From assembly GCA_050246315.1 (NCBI GenBank), contig JBFWWG010000006.1:1-64000 (forward strand): a DNA stretch of 64,000 nucleotides. Reading direction: 5' to 3'. A program made the position numbers. This DNA comes from Nitrospiraceae bacterium (lineage in GTDB: Bacteria; Nitrospirota; Nitrospiria; Nitrospirales; Nitrospiraceae). Shown here piece by piece: positions 12,001 through 27,000 of the stretch (position 1 is its first letter; every line of letters begins with the position of its first letter).

Positions 12001-15000
12001 CAACGATATCGTGGCAGGAAACCTGATCGCGAGCGATAGCAGGAGTGTGAATGCAAACGCAGGGCCTGCCGGCAACATCACGATTCAGGGGATCGACGGC
12101 CCGGGGACGGCCGCGACCAGCGTGCTGCTCAGGGATAGTTCCATTAGTTCCAGGATATTCGGAGGGTCACCGGGGGCAACGCGCTCTGCGATCACGATTA
12201 CCGCCGATTCACTCGTTCTGACGAACGAAGGACTGCCCGGTGGTGGAGGAGCGGCGACCATCGTGGCCAATACCATCGGCCCCGCCCCCGCCGGGAATAT
12301 TGCACTCAACGTGAACACATTGCTCGCGAACGTGAATGCTGATGAGACACCGATCGAGGGGGCTCGCAAAGTATTTATCGTCACAAGCAACAATCCGGGC
12401 AGTACGGCCGGGCCCACCGGCAACATTACGATCTCCGGTATTCGTCCTGAGTCTACCGATGCAGCCAACCTCGTGGCTTTGAACAATATCGCCATCAGCG
12501 CGGGGGCGGACGGCGGAACTGCGACGACGCCTCCGGGGAATATTACGATCACGACGGATACGTTGAGCCTGGCCAACGATGCGGGAATCCTGACGGCGAC
12601 ATTCGGGGAGGGGCCCCCGCCGGCCGGCACGATTGCCATCAACGTCAATACGCTGCGCGCCCAAATACGGCCAGACGGAACGCCCGTCAACGGCCTGCCT
12701 CAAAGCTTCCTTGCGAGTGTCAGCCTATCGGGACAGGCGGGCGACATCACCATATCGGGCATCGGCCCTGAAGCGACGGATGCGGCGAAGCTCCTCGCGC
12801 TCAACAATCTCGAGCTGAACACGGTGGTGTTTGGCGGAAACACAACCACCAGGCCCGCCGCGATCATGGTCACGGCGGACACGATCCAGCTCACCAACAG
12901 CAACAACATCAAGACCAATACGAACGGAGCCGCTCCAGCAGGAAATATCGCTTTCAACGCCACCACCTTTTCCGCCGATCAGGGCACCAAGATCAGCAGC
13001 GGCACATCCGGGCCGGGACCGGGCGGCACCATCTCGATTACGGCCGGCCAGTCCGTCACGTTGAACAATGGGAGTGCCATCACCGCGAGCAGCACCGGTC
13101 CGGCCGATGCGGGCGACATCACGATCAACGCGGGCCGGACCTTCACCAGTACCAACAGTTCCCTGACGACAGAGGCGGCTCAGGCCAGCGGCGGGAATAT
13201 CACCGTGCTCGCCACGGACAGCGTCCGGCTCACCAACAGCCAGCTCAATGCTTCCGTGCAGGGGTCCTCGACCACGATCGGCGGCAACATCGTCATCGAT
13301 CCACAAACCGTCATCTTGCAGAACAGCCAACTCGTCGCCAATGCGACGCAGGGGCAGGGCGGCAATATTTCCATCACGACCCAGTCCTTCCTGGCGGACG
13401 CGACCAGCGTGATCGACGCCTCCTCCCAATTCGGGGTCAGCGGGACGGTGAACATCCAATCCCCGACCTCGCAGATGGCGGGACGGCTGGTCGCCTTGCC
13501 GAACAATCCGCTGACGGCCACGCCGTTGCTCAGCCAGCGTTGCGCCGCCTTGGCGCACAGCGGTGAGAGCAGCAGCTTCGTGGTGGCGGGACGTGACAGT
13601 CTGCCGCCCGAGCCAGGCGGTTGGCTGCCCAGTCCGATGACGCTGGATACAAAGATCGCGAGCCTCGCGGCGAAAGAAGCGCCTCGCGTCTCGATCCGCC
13701 GCAGGCCGATAGCCGCAGCGGCGCCACAGATCGCCTTGCATGATTGGATCGGAGGCTGCGGCTCGTGATTTGCGGCGTTCACGAGCGCGATTCGTTCGTG
13801 GCAGTCGGATCGAATCGTGCGGGATGGTGCGGAGAGAAGGTGCGGAGCCGCCAGACAATATTCCAATTTCCGATCCTCTGGTTTCAGCCGCCACCGAGCC
13901 CGCCCACACGCTGCTTCGATCCTCAGAAAGTTCCGTACCGCAGGTTTCCTCTTCTCCCTTTACCATCAGTCCAGATGTATCTAAGCAGATACAGCCGGAA
14001 GGACATTTGGATACAGTACGCCTCGTTCTAGTCGGGCGTGGCGTTGATCCTGGCTCTCCTCTACGCACAGCATTCGTCCCGTCTCCCTTGCGTTCTCGCT
14101 AGCCTAGTCTCGCGATGATGCCCGTCCCCTGTCCGGTGGCAAGACGGCATAGTCATTGCTCTCCTCCTGGCACGAAGCGAGTGCCATGGCGCTCCTTTGG
14201 AATGAATCACCGGGGAGTCAAGGCAAGTGACGCTCCGAGCCGGGCACCCGATCCGTCACTGACGCTGGACAGCCGTGGATCGTAGGATCTCCTGGGTCCT
14301 GCCCATCCAGTCGATCTGGCCGCCTCAGAGGCTTTGTCGTTCAGCCGCGTCTCGCGGACGACTCCGTGACGCGGCGCTGCTGACGCTAGAGTCCGGCGAC
14401 TGTCGTCAGGGATTGTAGAAGTGGGAAGGTGGTGCGGCAGGATCCAGAACTGCGCAAGGCTTTACAACCAAGCTGTTCGCTGTACCAGGCTGTCCTACAG
14501 GCGATTAGCCTCACACTATCCCATAATTGGGATAACACCGCAAGAGCCGAACGGCTCTGGAGAATTAGGGCCTTGCCAAACGACTCTAAAGAGTTTACGT
14601 ATAGCGCCCTCCTCGGTGAGGCCGGTCCTGTTCTTTCCTCCCTCTTCAGAAAGAGGGAAGCAGAAAGAGAGTTAGCCGTCGATGGCTGCTCAGTTGCCGG
14701 AACGTCGCTCTCCTTCTCTTGGCCCGATCACGGGCATCACCCACTCTCAACGGCCAGACCATCTTCGCTTCACGCGATTGAGAACTCAGCCGACTCAACT
14801 CGTGTTCCTCGCGTTCTGTCTAAGCAGTGTTTGCCTCGCCACCGTGCCGGCACAGGCAGAGGACCCGGCTTCCGCTCAAGGAGAAGCGCCTCCTCAATCA
14901 AAGTCGGAAGCAGGTCCCCAGGATGCCGGCACGGCGGATGACATGACCAAGTTGCTGGAGGAAGAGCAGAAAGTGGTGCTCCGGGAGGACAGTGCTTCCA

Positions 15001-24000: not shown

Positions 24001-27000
24001 TCAATGGAACGTGCTCGGCCTTCTGCTGGTCGTCGTGGTCGCGTCGCCTGTCCGCACATTCGCTCAATCTGACAATCCCTCCGGCTCCTCCGCGCGCGAT
24101 CGGCGCGTGGAGGAAGACACGCTGGGCATCCTTCAAGAGGAAGAGACGGTCGTTACGGCGAGCCGCCACGCCCAGAGGATTTCCGAGGCGCCCTCGAACG
24201 TCTATGTCATCACCGACGACGACATCCGCCAGTCCGGCGCTCCGGATCTCCCCACCGTGCTGCGGCGCGTGCCAGGGATCGAGGTCATGCAGGTGACCGG
24301 GGCCCAATTCAACGTGAGCGCGCGGGGCGACAACCAGGCCGTCGCCAACAAGATGCTGGTCCTCGTGGACGGTCGATCCATCTATGTGGACATCAGCGGC
24401 GAGGTCTTCTGGAAGGCCATTCCGGTGACCTTGCCGGAGATCAAGAGGATCGAGGTCGTGAAGGGACCGTCTTCCGTCTTGTACGGCTTCAATGCGTTTG
24501 ATGGGGTGATCAACATCATCACCAAGTCCGCGAAGGAGATCAACGGCACGATCCTGCAATTCGGAGGCGGGGAATACGGCACCATCACGAGTTCGGCCGT
24601 GCATGCCGGAACCGCCGACAAATTCGGCTACCGACTCTCGGTCGGTCATGACCAGAACAACCAATGGCGGGATCGCAACGCGCTGGCGTTTCGCAACAAC
24701 AAGTTCAATGTCAACATGGACTATCACCTCTCCGGGGACTCGCGGGTCTTCCTCGAAGGCGGATTCAACGATGTGAACCGGTATGACGGCAATTTCACCG
24801 AGACGGTCACTCCGACCTCGCCGTTTTCGGACGGGTACGGACGTGCGGGCTACGAACGAGCGGACTTCTTTGTGCGCGCCTTTTTCAGGCGCGTGTCGTT
24901 CGACGCGGACGTCTTGACGAATCCGGTCTTGGCCCCCTTCATCCGCGTGACGGACGTCAACGGCAACCAGATGCAGTTCACGGATACCAACACCTATGAT
25001 ATCGAAGCCCAGCATACCCTCCATTGGGGCAAGCTCAACTCCTTGAGCTACGGCCTCAACCTCCGACGGAATACCATCAACAGCAATTGGGCGACCGCGG
25101 GTCACGAAAATCGGTTCGGACTCTATGTCCAGGACGAATTCAAACCGCACGAGACCTTCAGTGTGGTCGGCGGACTGCGGTACGATATGAACAGCCTCAT
25201 CAATCCCACACTGAGTCCTCGCCTTTCTCTGATATATCGGCCCGCGGCCGATCACTCGTTCCGTGCGACGGCCGCGGTGGCCTATCGCTCCCCTCAGCTC
25301 GGCGCCACCAACTTTCGTGCGCAATCGACCGCGACGCTGCCGACTGTGATCCCTGGATTCGTGGTGACTCAAGTGACGCCGTTGGTCGGTTCCGAGAGCC
25401 TCAAGCCCGAGCAGATCATTTCCTACGATGCGGGCTATCAAGGCTGGTACCTGAGGCACACTCTGAGGCTCCGGGCCGATATCTTCTTCAACCACATTTC
25501 CGACCTGATCGGGACGGCTAACGCCACTCTGGCCAATCGCGGCGGCAGCGCCGACATCTACGGCGGGGAGGCCGGGTTCGACTTCGATGTGACCAGATGG
25601 CTGAGTCTCTTTGGAAATTTCTCCTATCAGGAGATCAGCCAAACACTCACCGATGACACCCGGCGCGGCGGTCCACGGTTCAAGGTCAACGGCGGGGCTC
25701 GAGCGGACTTTGAAAATGGGCTCAACGGCGAGGTGGCGGTGTTTCATGTGGGATCAGCCACCTACCCCGTCAACGCGACCTTTGCCGAGTTCGCCGCGGG
25801 GTTTCCTACGTTCGGCATTCCTCCGTTGATCCCTCCTTCGGCGGTTCCCGTGGAGAGAGTCAATCATTACACTCTGCTCAACCTACGGGCGGGGTACCGG
25901 TTCTGGAAAGACAGGGCAGAGGCCGCCGTCAGCGTCTTCAACGCGCTGAACGATCGACACAATGAACATCCGCTCGGGGATACGATCGGCAGCCGGGTGA
26001 TGGGCTGGCTGACCCTGAAGTTATAGGCGACGATGCGCGGCCATTGGTCCACCCTGACAAACTACCCGGCGACGTGGCTGCTGCTCCTGTCAATGATCGG
26101 CGCACCGTCTGCCTGGGCGGCCGGCGTGCCGCACGATCATGCGGCCCCCGCTCTCCTGCCGGGGGCGCCGGTCTCGGTCGAGATCGAGCCAGACCGAATC
26201 ACGATTACCTTCGGCCCGCTCGATTTGCCGACCGGCCACGAGGGCGAACTGGCCGCCTCCCTGCCGCCCCACCTGTTTCAGGTGCCGCATGAGATGTTCT
26301 TCACCGGGTTCCACGCATCGCTGTCCACGGCGGACGGCGCCCCGCTGCCCCGCCACTATTTGCACCATCTCCTGTTGATCGATCCTGCCAAGGAGAGTCC
26401 GGCCTGTCCCGGTGAGGTGTATTTTCTCGCGGGCGCCGGGTTGGAGATGTCGGACGCGCGGTTCCCCGACGGCTATGGCGTCAAGCTTCAGGCCGCCGAT
26501 CGGTTGATGGCCGTGGTGGCCTTTTATCACGGCGCGCCCGCCACGACCGGCGTCGTCGCACGTTTGACGCTGCATCTGGCGCCGGCAGGCGCCGGCCTCA
26601 CGCCGCTTCAGGTCTATCACGTGGGCATCAACGTGGGCTGTTATCGCCAACTCGAGCGGCGCGCGCCGGGAGAGACCGACGAAGGTCTGCCGCTGGCCCC
26701 CGGGCTTTCGGTCGTCACCGCCCCCGTCGCATTCAGCATGGACGGCTGCGTCAAGTACGCCTATCCTCACGGACACGACCATCTGGTGCTGTTCACGCTG
26801 GAGAACCGGACCTCCGGTCGGACGCTCCTCCGCACCGCTCCCGAAACCTCGCGGGACGGCACCTTGATCGCCTTTCCTCCCAGCCAGGTCTACCGCAACA
26901 GCATCGGCTTTTCGATTTCCAAGGACGAGAGCTACGAGATCACGATGATCTCTCACCGCCCGTTGCAAGACAAGGGTCCGCGCTACGGCATGGCCAACTA

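Follow-up and report, generated by a model that had tools for sequence, protein, structure and literature searches.

A TonB-dependent receptor, TBDR1, and the genes for a thiazole/oxazole (TOMM) peptide form a co-inherited and co-evolving unit, not a loose synteny, in the stretch of DNA analysed here (64,000 nucleotides of a Nitrospiraceae bacterium, GCA_050246315.1, contig JBFWWG010000006.1, positions 1 to 64,000; hereafter the window) and in its relatives. The receptor lineage of TBDR1 exists almost only beside azole-peptide machinery, and the evidence leans modestly towards a self-made ligand that is re-imported by this receptor. That the secreted azole peptide is a metallophore re-imported via TBDR1, for copper, iron, nickel or cobalt, which are not distinguishable, is a narrower proposition that we put forward tentatively. 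It suggests that this operon of a nitrite oxidiser would yield a self-made metal scavenger belonging to a chemical class so far undescribed.

Gene content of the cassette

ORF calls place seven genes on the plus strand from 14682 to 23114, in the order TBDR1, SAM methyltransferase, precursor, E1-like protein, YcaO, SagB and DyP. Neighbouring genes overlap or are separated by short gaps, and the cassette is operon-like. ORFs and profile matches agree with the initial annotation on the identity and position of the receptors and of these genes, and the thiazole/oxazole cassette that it had recognised is real; the TOMM components all exceed the curated cut-offs in the profile search.

TBDR1 (14682-16943), the cassette's own receptor, contains Plug and TonB_dep_Rec_b-barrel domains. 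The class I SAM-dependent methyltransferase (16998-17894; Methyltransf_31/25/11, UbiE/ArsM-like, all under equivalog cut-offs) is read as an accessory tailoring enzyme and has a homologue in 10 of 36 receptor-linked loci. The E1-like or SagC-type partner (18342-19481; TIGR03882, 46.5 bits against a cut-off of 36.9; TIGR03603, 2.2e-27) would, judging from its sequence, bind the leader as the C component of the cyclodehydratase. The 3' end of its gene overlaps by 4 bases the start of the gene for the D component, the YcaO cyclodehydratase (19478-20806; PF02624, 1.9e-61; TIGR03604, E 2.4e-84, 283 bits against a cut-off of 219), whose conserved N..PHP at the C-terminus does not vary across 15 relatives. 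The SagB-type FMN dehydrogenase, of the kind that converts azolines to azoles (20816-21661), has the Nitroreductase fold and matches TIGR03605 above the cut-off (141 bits, 2.6e-41); its end is overlapped by 8 bases by the start of a C/D-type dye-decolorising peroxidase, DyP (21654-23114; TIGR01413, 103 bits, cut-off 100.5). The latter aligns over its full length to AnaPX (5c2i, 6e-65) and DyP2 (4g2c, 2e-62) and has GxxDG, HIRR and RRG stretches, which we take to be the motifs of those names. No signal sequence was seen at its N-terminus, and it is probably a cytoplasmic oxidative tailoring enzyme. DyP is present in 18 of the 36 receptor-linked loci, never together with the HExxGH protein of relatives.

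In the whole 4.39-Mb genome tblastn finds nine receptor-like places, four of them in the window; this, together with the gene order kept in 22 of 22 related loci, means that the arrangement of receptor and azole-peptide genes is not due to chance. RNA-library contigs of four studies cover the cluster, one contig spans the precursor into E1 (17994-18740), and the X1 library holds a contig of 16.5 kb, which is no proof of transcription since RNA libraries can contain DNA.

The precursor and its core

The precursor gene (17992-18306, plus strand) encodes 104 amino acids in translation, or 109 from an alternative ATG at 17977; the shorter form is favoured by an AAGGAGG Shine-Dalgarno sequence immediately 5' of the second ATG (17992). 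The C-terminus reads GTGANSCCCTWG, with a core ending in NSCCCTWG, and the long leader bears family motifs. In an alignment with 16 relatives CC is invariant and a Tyr about 8 residues upstream is near-invariant; the CC pair is also invariant among long-leader cores. The initial annotation had likened the precursor to the NHLP type, an assignment that has to be withdrawn because it fits none of the NCBIfam models, those for NHLP and Nif11 included. Its term "polythiazole" fits the core in the window but not the whole family: in the receptor-linked clade the number of Cys per core ranges from 1 to 7, so no single chelating architecture is conserved, and 5 of the 36 receptor-linked clusters contain TfuA and a second YcaO (TfuA is absent from the window cluster). 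TfuA and YcaO are known as a thioamide-forming pair, and azoles and thioamides together would, by analogy, yield azole-N/thioamide-S pairs as in methanobactin, for which such pairs are named in the available part of PMC3621798. Both the CC pair and these thioamidation genes would suit chelation.

Inheritance of the receptor with the peptide genes

In all 22 genome loci of the window's order with a related YcaO (43-55% identical), a receptor resembling TBDR1/2 (48-63% identical) stands immediately upstream in the same orientation, and in all of them the order receptor-precursor-E1-YcaO-SagB recurs, with the precursor placed between receptor and E1. The same order is found in 12 further metagenome loci, and it is kept in 34 of 34 informative clade loci, even where the identity of YcaO and receptor has fallen to about 45% and 47%, respectively, and the flanks of receptor-linked loci vary between taxonomic families.

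In a FastTree phylogeny of 110 receptors (a smaller set was also treed) one clade of 30 with support 98 holds all 29 peptide-linked receptors. TBDR1 is inside it, closest to the linked receptors of L056, L074 and L027, and it is the only window receptor that belongs to the cassette. Excluded from this clade are the other receptors at the linked loci (11 of 11), 6 of 6 receptor copies elsewhere in YcaO-positive genomes and 63 of 64 receptors from YcaO-less genomes; receptor-only genomes are thus scarce, with 1 of the 64 inside the clade. The wider receptor subfamily is present in 87 of 201 genomes and YcaO in 24 of 201, and the distribution of the cassette is accessory (13 of 33 genera).

The YcaO proteins give a similar picture: 35 of 36 receptor-linked ones fall into one group of 37 rows (SH-aLRT 93), and forcing all 36 together improves the likelihood (+49 lnL, p-AU 0.876). 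Distances between YcaOs correlate with those between receptors (Mantel r 0.83), and 0 of 2000 permutations reached this value. Since three taxonomic families are interleaved in both the YcaO and the receptor trees, the cassette moves together with its receptor. The receptor link claimed by the initial annotation therefore stands, as does its confinement to the window's order among the genomes sampled, whereas the reservation that adjacency may be mere inherited synteny loses much of its ground in view of the 22 of 22 loci, the clade with 29 linked receptors out of 30 and the Mantel correlation. The linkage arose once and thus counts once statistically.

Surroundings and regulation

The cassette had been tied to both receptors that flank it. 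This is correct for TBDR1 but not for TBDR2 (23894-26026, plus strand; Plug and barrel), a paralogue and mere neighbour that neither receptor tree places in the linked clade. The block 26033-28152 on the same strand encodes a pair of secreted paralogues (26033-27112 and 27109-28152) whose predicted fold resembles that of peptidylglycine alpha-hydroxylating monooxygenase (PHM); they are 42% identical, keep HH, H, HxH and M positions invariant, have no Pfam match and belong to Nitrospirota-specific Atlas clusters. With a model of pLDDT 66 and pTM 0.69, the top 29 Foldseek matches are all PHM (best E 4.6e-9, TM 0.42-0.50), and TBDR2 forms a module with these two proteins of predicted copper-monooxygenase fold.

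Other plus-strand neighbours outside the conserved cassette are a 188-aa protein with a hydrophobic, lipobox-like N-terminal start (23250-23816), which has no Pfam or NCBIfam match, a weak homologue in L077 only and one paralogue on contig C10, and a 126-aa protein (28746-29126) that recurs near receptors of this family (L027, L053, L058, L074, L077, L192, L194, L195). The sole Pfam match of the latter is weak (0.13, Rv0623-like), and inspection of the sequence suggests that it is possibly a ribbon-helix-helix regulator. The two more receptors reported nearby are indeed present: TBDR3 (29812-31854, plus strand), a paralogue outside the linked clade, and TBDR4 (35335-37314), which stands in a plus-strand regulatory/receptor block (33715-42731) with two REC-PAS regulators (33715-35304 and 37767-39362), an SBP-like sensor (39463-40401) and a HAMP-GAF histidine kinase ending at 42731, all assigned from Pfam.

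Upstream of the linked receptor in 36 loci an SBP-like protein occurs in 20, a kinase in 21 and a REC-PAS regulator in 18, and each of them in 0 of 29 loci without receptor. The same set also flanks receptors without peptide genes (L164, L167, L170, L177), so these regulators go with the receptor subfamily and not with the peptide. The search for a Fur box or metal regulator, which the initial annotation had left undone, found neither a Fur box nor a metal regulator; Fur boxes are not enriched either, the best mismatch averaging 8.09 compared with 8.08 for shuffled sequences, and regulation of the cassette looks two-component rather than Fur-dependent. Some 150 bp ahead of TBDR1, at 14517-14534, stands a perfect 18-bp palindrome, TATCCCATAATTGGGATA, which occurs only once in the window (expected 0.01) and has no second copy in the genome. 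Similar ATCC..GGAT palindromes are found in 7 of 33 related upstream regions (shuffled mean 2.5, maximum 7), and a relative with 98% identity, L001, lacks the palindrome at the same position; as a candidate operator it is a weak lead.

Possible role of the peptide

From the gene identities and order, the dedicated receptor clade and the co-inheritance we infer the following pathway. The E1-like protein would bind the long precursor leader, and YcaO and SagB would turn the C-terminal Ser-Cys-Cys-Cys-Thr into contiguous thiazoles and (methyl)oxazoles, after which the methyltransferase and the cytoplasmic DyP may tailor the peptide further. A protease would cut off the leader and the peptide would be exported; outside the cell it would capture a scarce ligand, most likely a metal ion, via in-line azole nitrogens, joined in some relatives by thioamide sulfur, and TBDR1 would return the loaded peptide across the outer membrane. 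No exporter (ABC, MFS, RND, MATE) is matched among the 47 window ORFs scanned, and none of these families appears in 16 related loci, where 82 neighbouring ORFs were covered. Neither a leader peptidase nor an inner-membrane importer for the cassette was found here, and the HExxGH protein, the candidate peptidase in relatives, has no homologue in this genome. Fully aromatic thiazoles are weak Fe(III) donors, which counts against an iron metallophore, and shared siderophores usually attract more cheaters, so that the paucity of receptor-only genomes counts against a metallophore in general. On the supporting side, the available part of a Nitrospira marina preprint reports no known siderophore genes but multiple TonB-like receptors.

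It is unlikely, though worth weighing, that the cassette makes a microcin-like linear azole peptide with antibacterial action and that TBDR1 is a resistant allele, a self-induction sensor or a recovery route. Antibiotics make up the majority of the linear azole peptides characterised so far (review abstracts and general knowledge), same-subfamily receptors, common in related genomes (87 of 201), could be the entry gate in competitors, and both the patchy, mobile distribution and the association with a two-component system instead of a metal regulator suit a weapon. Yet an immunity gene and an export pump are absent from the window and 16 related loci, an extra receptor copy would not protect a producer whose genome still encodes the sensitive paralogues TBDR2 and TBDR3, and bacteriocin clusters are not known, in the literature searched, to have a strictly co-inherited dedicated importer.

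A secreted signal, be it autoinducer or kin cue, taken up or sensed via TBDR1 with the SBP-like sensor, kinase and REC-PAS regulator closing the loop, appears improbable to us. The presence of these regulators at about 18-21 of 36 linked receptors and at none of the 29 receptor-less loci speaks for it, and a hypervariable core behind a conserved leader recalls pherotype diversification, but the same regulators accompany peptide-less receptors, pure signals are rarely imported by a TonB-dependent route, and TBDR1 has no N-terminal signalling domain recognised by Pfam. We give similarly little credence to the possibility that TBDR1 imports an unrelated nutrient while the peptide has its action elsewhere, perhaps intracellularly, the two being inherited neighbours only. 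The single origin of the linkage in carriers all found in one order, the character of the window as a general receptor island and the lack of an exporter among its ORFs would agree with this; against it stand the order kept in all informative loci despite deep divergence, flanks that differ between taxonomic families, a linked receptor clade almost never found without peptide genes (1 orphan in 64), and receptor-less sister YcaO loci that are built altogether differently.

Relation to known systems

The sister YcaO branch consists of uncharacterised B12-radical-SAM Cys-run clusters, with one genome pair (G429, G452) outside the window's order. Its E1-like, YcaO and SagB proteins are 44-54% identical, and its precursors have the leader motif L-T/S-x-x-D-hydrophobic and a Cys-rich core at the C-terminus in common with those of the window's branch. 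Unlike the window, it lacks a receptor; in 7 loci E1 is preceded by a B12-binding radical SAM gene, a protein of about 750-850 aa follows SagB in 8, and the cores have far longer Cys runs of the CCCC-T-P-CCC type, then a tail. Fur-regulated siderophore islands resemble the cassette in that a receptor stands beside biosynthesis genes and in being accessory, patchy and horizontally mobile, but the window lacks a Fur-box signal, NRPS/NIS enzymes, an ABC importer and a reductase, and its family has two-component regulators and hardly any receptor-only genomes.

As in known TOMM clusters, E1-like, YcaO and SagB genes accompany a precursor whose C-terminal core is rich in Cys/Ser/Thr, contiguous azoles are expected, and there is a small SAM methyltransferase of the kind seen in the plantazolicin and azolemycin clusters. 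The cassette differs from them in opening with a dedicated, co-evolving TonB-dependent receptor, in lacking an export pump and an immunity gene (window and 16 related loci), in having a C/D-type DyP as accessory enzyme and in a leader that falls in no described family. No published TOMM cluster with a receptor was found in the literature searched, and the words TonB, siderophore and metal do not occur in the main text of the 2015 TOMM landscape paper (PMC4603692).

Another close parallel is methanobactin, whose operons (MbnA/B/C and MbnT) differ from the window in using an MNIO (MbnB/DUF692), of which there is no match in the window, in place of YcaO/SagB, and in having an MbnE-like periplasmic binding protein, a MATE exporter and a sigma/anti-sigma pair; copper binding is putative for the window peptide. 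A haem peroxidase-type protein is near both, MbnH there and DyP here. In both, Cys residues of a ribosomal precursor become nitrogen heterocycles (predicted here), and a cognate TonB-dependent transporter is encoded in the same operon (PMC3621798 and the available part of PMC9601215); among the literature searched, as far as that part of PMC9601215 goes, methanobactin/MbnT is the sole RiPP metallophore operon with its own transporter of this kind. The likeness would extend further in the five relatives that add thioamidation genes, whose products would carry azole/thioamide pairs.

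Composition of the Cassette

By every criterion that can be tested on sequence, the seven forward-strand genes located at 14682-23114 form a cassette of the thiazole/oxazole-modified peptide (TOMM), or linear azole peptide, kind. The cassette is well delimited, its defining novelty, as judged from the comparisons with related loci, is a dedicated clade of TonB-dependent receptors, and a metallophore function is plausible for it. The first gene codes for the receptor TBDR1 (14682-16943), which has the plug and barrel domains of TonB-dependent receptors (PF07715, 6.9e-19; PF00593, 9.4e-31), the plug aligning to Cir and BtuB. 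It is followed by the genes of a class I SAM methyltransferase (16998-17894; Pfam and NCBIfam), a small precursor without family (an entry of the ORF listing that starts at 17977 or 17992, ends at 18306 and has no Pfam or NCBIfam match), an E1-like TOMM partner protein (18342-19481; TIGR03882, 46.5 bits, cut-off 36.9), a SagD-type YcaO cyclodehydratase (19478-20806; TIGR03604, 2.4e-84, 283.4 bits, cut-off 219.25; PF02624, 1.9e-61), a SagB-type FMN dehydrogenase (20816-21661; TIGR03605, 141 bits, cut-off 78.4) and a DyP peroxidase (21654-23114). With TIGR03603, the E1-like protein scores 96.6 bits, under the cut-off of 187. The E1-like and YcaO genes overlap by 4 bases and the SagB and DyP genes by 8 bases, and the remaining gaps of the cassette measure 35-97 bases.

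The DyP peroxidase matches the C/D-type enzymes AnaPX (5c2i, residues 10-484; 6.4e-65) and DyP2 (4g2c; 2.3e-62) over its full length and contains GxxDG, a proximal His stretch and RRG, which we take to be the haem-site motifs of DyP peroxidases. Since it carries no signal peptide, it is likely a cytoplasmic enzyme and not one of the EfeB-like periplasmic type. Downstream of it are a 188-aa protein without family (Pfam and NCBIfam) and a second receptor, TBDR2 (23894-26026; Pfam). The gene content and placement proposed for 14682..26026 in the initial annotation were borne out in every particular by the ORF listing, Pfam and NCBIfam.

Precursor Peptides

The translated precursor ends in GTGANSCCCTWG, with NSCCCTWG as the end of the core, and its ORF stops 35 bases before the E1 gene. 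A strong Shine-Dalgarno sequence ahead of the second ATG argues for the 104-aa form. Homologous precursors hold the same position in relatives, and within the receptor-linked clade (the loci where a receptor adjoins azole-peptide genes) their leaders are of two types. The long type (~100-145 aa), to which the precursor of the window belongs, has DLMRLxGF...ALExHxGxxY, 6-8 further residues and then an invariant CC, its cores being typically CC[T/S/C]C at or close to the C-terminal end; the short type (~55-80 aa) has L-x-x-L-T-F-x-D-L, and its cores go down to one Cys, e.g., where TfuA is also encoded. The NHLP/Nif11 leader families were considered and ruled out by NCBIfam profile search, in which 17 long-leader precursors matched neither these nor any other family (E up to 1), 20 further precursors gave no match at E up to 0.1, and the precursor of the window gave none. 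The earlier designation of the product as a polythiazole suits the window, where Ser-Cys-Cys-Cys-Thr could form five contiguous azoles, but does not extend to the family, in which single-Cys cores occur. What the family has in common, as far as its genes and precursors indicate, is a small Cys-derived azole peptide, with or without thioamide, that comes with its own receptor.

Association with a Dedicated Receptor Clade

A YcaO match was found in 24 of the 201 genomes of the window's order, representing 13 of its 33 genera, and the proteins of the window were mapped onto 20 kb around each match. Some of these carriers have complete genomes in one contig. All 22 loci with a YcaO protein 43-55% identical to that of the window contain, on one strand, a receptor, a gap, and the E1-like, YcaO and SagB genes in this order, the receptor-to-E1 gap being 0.3-0.9 kb (2.4 kb in one locus); nothing of this order of receptor, E1-like and SagB genes is seen around the one distant YcaO match (27%). 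In the gap of 20 of the 22 loci, a rule based on Cys count found an ORF that resembles a precursor and has Cys at its C-terminus, and the precursors of the other two (L045 and L047), with single-Cys cores, were picked by eye. When 401 genomes from across the phylum were sampled, only two further matches came from outside the order, neither of them with a receptor, so that the limitation of the receptor link to this order, as claimed before, holds among the 201 genomes of the order and the 401 of the phylum sample. Scanning metagenomes with an alignment of YcaO proteins yielded 80 further loci, 12 of which have a receptor upstream; many of the metagenome loci with YcaO proteins 44-54% identical have none there. 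A scan of species genomes with the single protein returned one locus, the 98% relative, and the comparisons rest on the genome searches and the metagenome scan.

Of the 36 receptor-linked rows in a 93-row YcaO tree, 35 are part of one group of 37 (SH-aLRT 93), the only row of this group listed as having no receptor being uninformative because its contig begins with the methyltransferase. When all 36 linked rows were forced into one clade, the likelihood rose above that of the unconstrained quick search (+49 lnL; p-AU 0.876). Receptors of the TBDR1/2/3 subfamily are far commoner than YcaO, being present, often in tandem, in 87 of the 201 genomes, and the better-scoring matches of the subfamily search, not all of them, went into trees of 61 and then 110 receptors. 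In the 110-row tree (FastTree, whose support values are local), all 29 peptide-linked receptors belong to one clade of 30 with support 98. This clade excludes 63 of the 64 receptors of genomes without YcaO, each of the 11 other receptors of peptide loci (TBDR2 and TBDR3 of the window among them) and all 6 receptor copies located elsewhere in YcaO-positive genomes. Sub-clades of YcaO and receptor correspond to each other, with a Mantel r of 0.83 between pairwise distances that was reached in 0 of 2000 permutations, and since the three taxonomic families of the order are interleaved in both trees, the cassette has passed from one lineage to another along with its receptor. Judged from these trees, the linkage of receptor and cassette is of a single origin, with carriers so far in one order only, and the receptor lineage is essentially confined to the cassette and co-inherited with it. 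No residue distinguishes the linked clade at the level of at least 90% inside and at most 15% outside it.

The only linked-clade receptor of the 110-receptor tree that was found apart from peptide genes is that of locus L174 (G130:C4:1254728-1264638), where tblastn revealed no trace of E1, YcaO or SagB (E up to 1) and the 4 kb downstream hold no ORF longer than 130 aa; it is possibly a receptor-only survivor.

Accessory Genes and Sister Architectures

Among the 36 receptor-linked loci, the DyP peroxidase is found in 18, the methyltransferase in 10, an FAD amine oxidase in 5 and, inside the cluster, TfuA with a second YcaO in 5. The latter five loci (L026, L028, L045, L047 and L101) encode a long TfuA-domain protein of 462-481 aa, which by its pairing with the second YcaO implies a probable thioamidation of the same small peptides; the cores of L045, L047 and L101 contain a single Cys. 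The cluster of the window has no such pair. An SBP-like sensor (20/36), a HAMP-GAF kinase (21/36) and a REC-PAS regulator (18/36) are located mostly upstream of the linked receptor, and all three are missing from the 29 loci that lack a receptor; as they also occur beside receptors without peptide genes, they likely belong to the receptor subfamily generally.

Ten of the 36 loci (L030, L034, L043, L044, L045, L046, L047, L089, L101 and L105) encode a protein of a new family (~480-630 aa) with an invariant HExxGH followed downstream by a Glu, positioned directly after SagB (e.g., L034:6774-8441, minus strand) and never found together with DyP. This family has no Pfam match (E up to 1) and no PDB sequence match below E 0.37. 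Its structural model (pLDDT 70) gave no Foldseek match at E <=0.001, DPP3 appearing only at E 0.1-0.8, and mostly zinc metallopeptidases with middling Z of 5-6.7 in a wide structural search. In our reading, this protein is a candidate for the peptidase that removes the leader in the short-leader subtype; no homologue of it was found in the genome under study.

In two receptor-linked loci, a gene of a FadL/TodX-type outer-membrane channel lies just upstream of the receptor (L027:3122-4510 and L053:1165-2565); in a tblastn tally L070 also scores, and L053 falls below the threshold. It is conceivable that a hydrophobic peptide leaves or enters the cell through such a channel.

The sister YcaO loci, which have no receptor, appear to represent an uncharacterised architecture. 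Seven of them have a B12-binding radical SAM gene upstream of E1, in eight the SagB gene is followed by that of a ~750-850 aa protein matching TPR models weakly, and their precursors have a CCCC-T-P-CCC pattern with a tail and much longer Cys runs. Metagenome loci of this kind include L051, L061, L067, L082, L099, L104, L113 and others.

Neighboring Genes

The window holds 4 of the 9 receptor-like places of the genome. TBDR2 is directly followed by two paralogous secreted proteins (26033-27112 and 27109-28152, forward strand) that have no Pfam match and whose Atlas clusters are specific to Nitrospirota. The top 29 Foldseek matches of the model, which is of middling confidence (pLDDT 66), are all peptidylglycine alpha-hydroxylating monooxygenase (PHM) entries, with E down to 4.6e-9 and TM of 0.42-0.50, and H111, H112, H196, H246, H248 and M320 are invariant (HH, H, HxH, M). 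This HH..H and HxH..M arrangement is presumably the copper-site ligand pattern of PHM/DBM, and PDB titles of the PHM mutants H107A, H108A, H172A and M314I echo it. Fold and invariant positions suggest a possible pair of periplasmic copper monooxygenases associated with the receptor. A connection of these proteins with a C-terminal Gly of precursors was considered and rejected: the two occur together in one lineage only, PHM-like genes without the Gly end occur in one lineage, and the Gly end without PHM-like genes in six (of which L039 and L066 are doubtful ORFs).

Further downstream, a ~126-aa protein (28746-29126, forward strand), with a ribbon-helix-helix-like stretch recognizable by eye and a weak match as its sole Pfam hit, recurs beside receptors of the subfamily with or without peptide genes (homologues in L027, L053, L058, L074, L077, L192, L194 and L195). 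The third receptor, TBDR3 (29812-31854; Pfam), is followed by REC-PAS regulators, a fourth receptor (35335-37314), an SBP-like sensor and a HAMP-GAF kinase (Pfam). Upstream, the cassette is preceded by a two-partner-secretion block (2051-13768, forward strand) that is composed of a TpsA-like protein (2051-5020), a ShlB/FhaC-type transporter (5017-6825), a TPR-CHAT protein (6815-9223), two DUF928 proteins (9220-10835) and a second TpsA-like protein (10805-13768); a CHAT protein is also encoded near the receptor-less YcaO locus L099. On the reverse strand, a LarC-like nickel insertion protein (PF01969; 50294-51520), a 239-aa ORF without family and a LarB-like AIR-carboxylase-like protein (52362-53222) form a block (50294-53222) that looks like a nickel-pincer cofactor gene set.

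Regulation and Expression

The classical Fur 19-mer, from which the Nitrospirales motif may differ, scored no better than in shuffles either in 33 upstream regions (mean best mismatch 8.09 vs. 8.08) or in 33 intergenic regions (7.48 vs. 7.61). Seven of 33 related upstream regions contain sites of the ATCC..GGAT type (mean in shuffles 2.5, maximum 7), and footprinting across five such regions revealed no distinct block. A palindrome at 14517-14534 was rejected as a shared operator, being unique in the genome and having no counterpart in the closest relative. No Rfam match reached the gathering score in the window, and none was found at E up to 1 within 13700-14760.

Parts of the window are present in 20 of the 23 sequencing runs listed; these 20 come from 8 studies, and 17 of them are recorded as RNA. 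Among the contigs of four runs (four studies), which together extend over much of the cluster, one from the sludge RNA library X4 (17994-18740) bridges the precursor and E1, a result that lends weak support to transcription of the cluster, given that RNA libraries may contain DNA, that contig depth cannot rank genes and that coverage gaps in the libraries X4-X6 are not interpretable. In X4, an intergenic piece upstream of TBDR1 (~14185-14335) has a depth of ~400 against ~8 around it, with adapter-like loose ends on both sides; possible explanations are a small RNA, a stable 5' fragment and an artefact, and folding of 14170-14350 is no better than that of shuffles (z 0.56).

Proposed Function and Comparison with Known Systems

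We propose that the precursor would be heterocyclised by the cassette enzymes and that the methyltransferase and the cytoplasmic DyP peroxidase would tailor the product, after which the leader would be removed and the peptide exported, to be later re-imported through TBDR1 carrying its ligand. A TonB-dependent receptor makes sense only for cargo that is outside the cell, and a receptor that is found only beside biosynthesis genes likely has the product itself as its cargo. On chemical reasoning, contiguous 2,4-linked azoles would set their nitrogens in line as in oligopyridines, and the TfuA/YcaO pairs of five relatives would put a thioamide sulfur beside an azole, an azole/thioamide donor pair being named for methanobactin in PMC3621798. 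We therefore favour a metallophore as the product, with nearly even chances, for whichever metal.

Several findings point against this assignment. Neither an exporter nor an inner-membrane importer nor a metal regulator turned up in the window (47 ORFs scanned) or in related loci, the Fur motif gave no signal, no leader peptidase was found in this genome, the cores are variable, and there are almost no genomes with the receptor alone; besides, aromatic thiazoles are poor Fe(III) ligands. The product may instead be an antibiotic, the receptor having another role, which we consider unlikely; a role as a signal is another alternative, which we hold to be quite improbable. The remaining alternative, already raised in the initial annotation, is that receptor and peptide genes are adjacent through plain inherited synteny. 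The single origin of the linkage and its confinement to one order speak for it, whereas the dedicated receptor clade, the matching sub-clades and the joint movement of receptor and cassette speak against it, and we give it a low probability.

The cassette of the Nitrospirales may represent the first ribosomal metallophore made by a YcaO enzyme, with a short C-terminal azole peptide (in some members also with thioamide) that would be secreted, bind a trace metal such as Cu or Fe and be recovered via a receptor lineage evolved for it alone, a proposition that we make tentatively and rate somewhat below even odds. Nitrospira that oxidise nitrite have a high demand for iron, molybdenum and copper. 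A preprint on N. marina describes Nitrospira as lacking known siderophore genes and having many TonB-type receptors. The cassette, with its co-evolving importer, is a concrete candidate for a self-made scavenging molecule in nitrifiers of soils and wastewater plants. Should the cargo be something other than a metal, a class of ribosomal peptides defined by its receptor still provides a new handle for genome mining, with the receptor clade as a marker.

In the literature outside subscription-only papers and supplements, we found no published YcaO/TOMM system with a TonB-dependent receptor, and the words TonB, siderophore, metal and Nitrospir are absent from the main text of a 2015 TOMM survey (PMC4603692). 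The ribosomal metallophores that we found in the literature are all MNIO-based; if confirmed, the present proposal would add YcaO/azole chemistry to them. Methanobactin with MbnT is the best-known ribosomal-peptide precedent of the receptor logic: its cognate TonB-dependent transporter is encoded with the precursor, and here TBDR1 or its counterpart is directly upstream in 22 of the 22 genome loci. In contrast to methanobactin, MbnB (MNIO/DUF692) and MbnC are absent among the 47 window ORFs scanned with Pfam, and thioamidation genes, which would be expected for copper-binding heterocycle/thioamide pairs like those of methanobactin, are present in 5 of 36 relatives and not in the window. Since there is no MNIO enzyme, the cassette is not of the methanobactin type despite a similar operon logic, and, if the proposal is true, nitrite oxidisers would possess a self-made means of metal acquisition that parallels methanobactin by entirely different enzymology.
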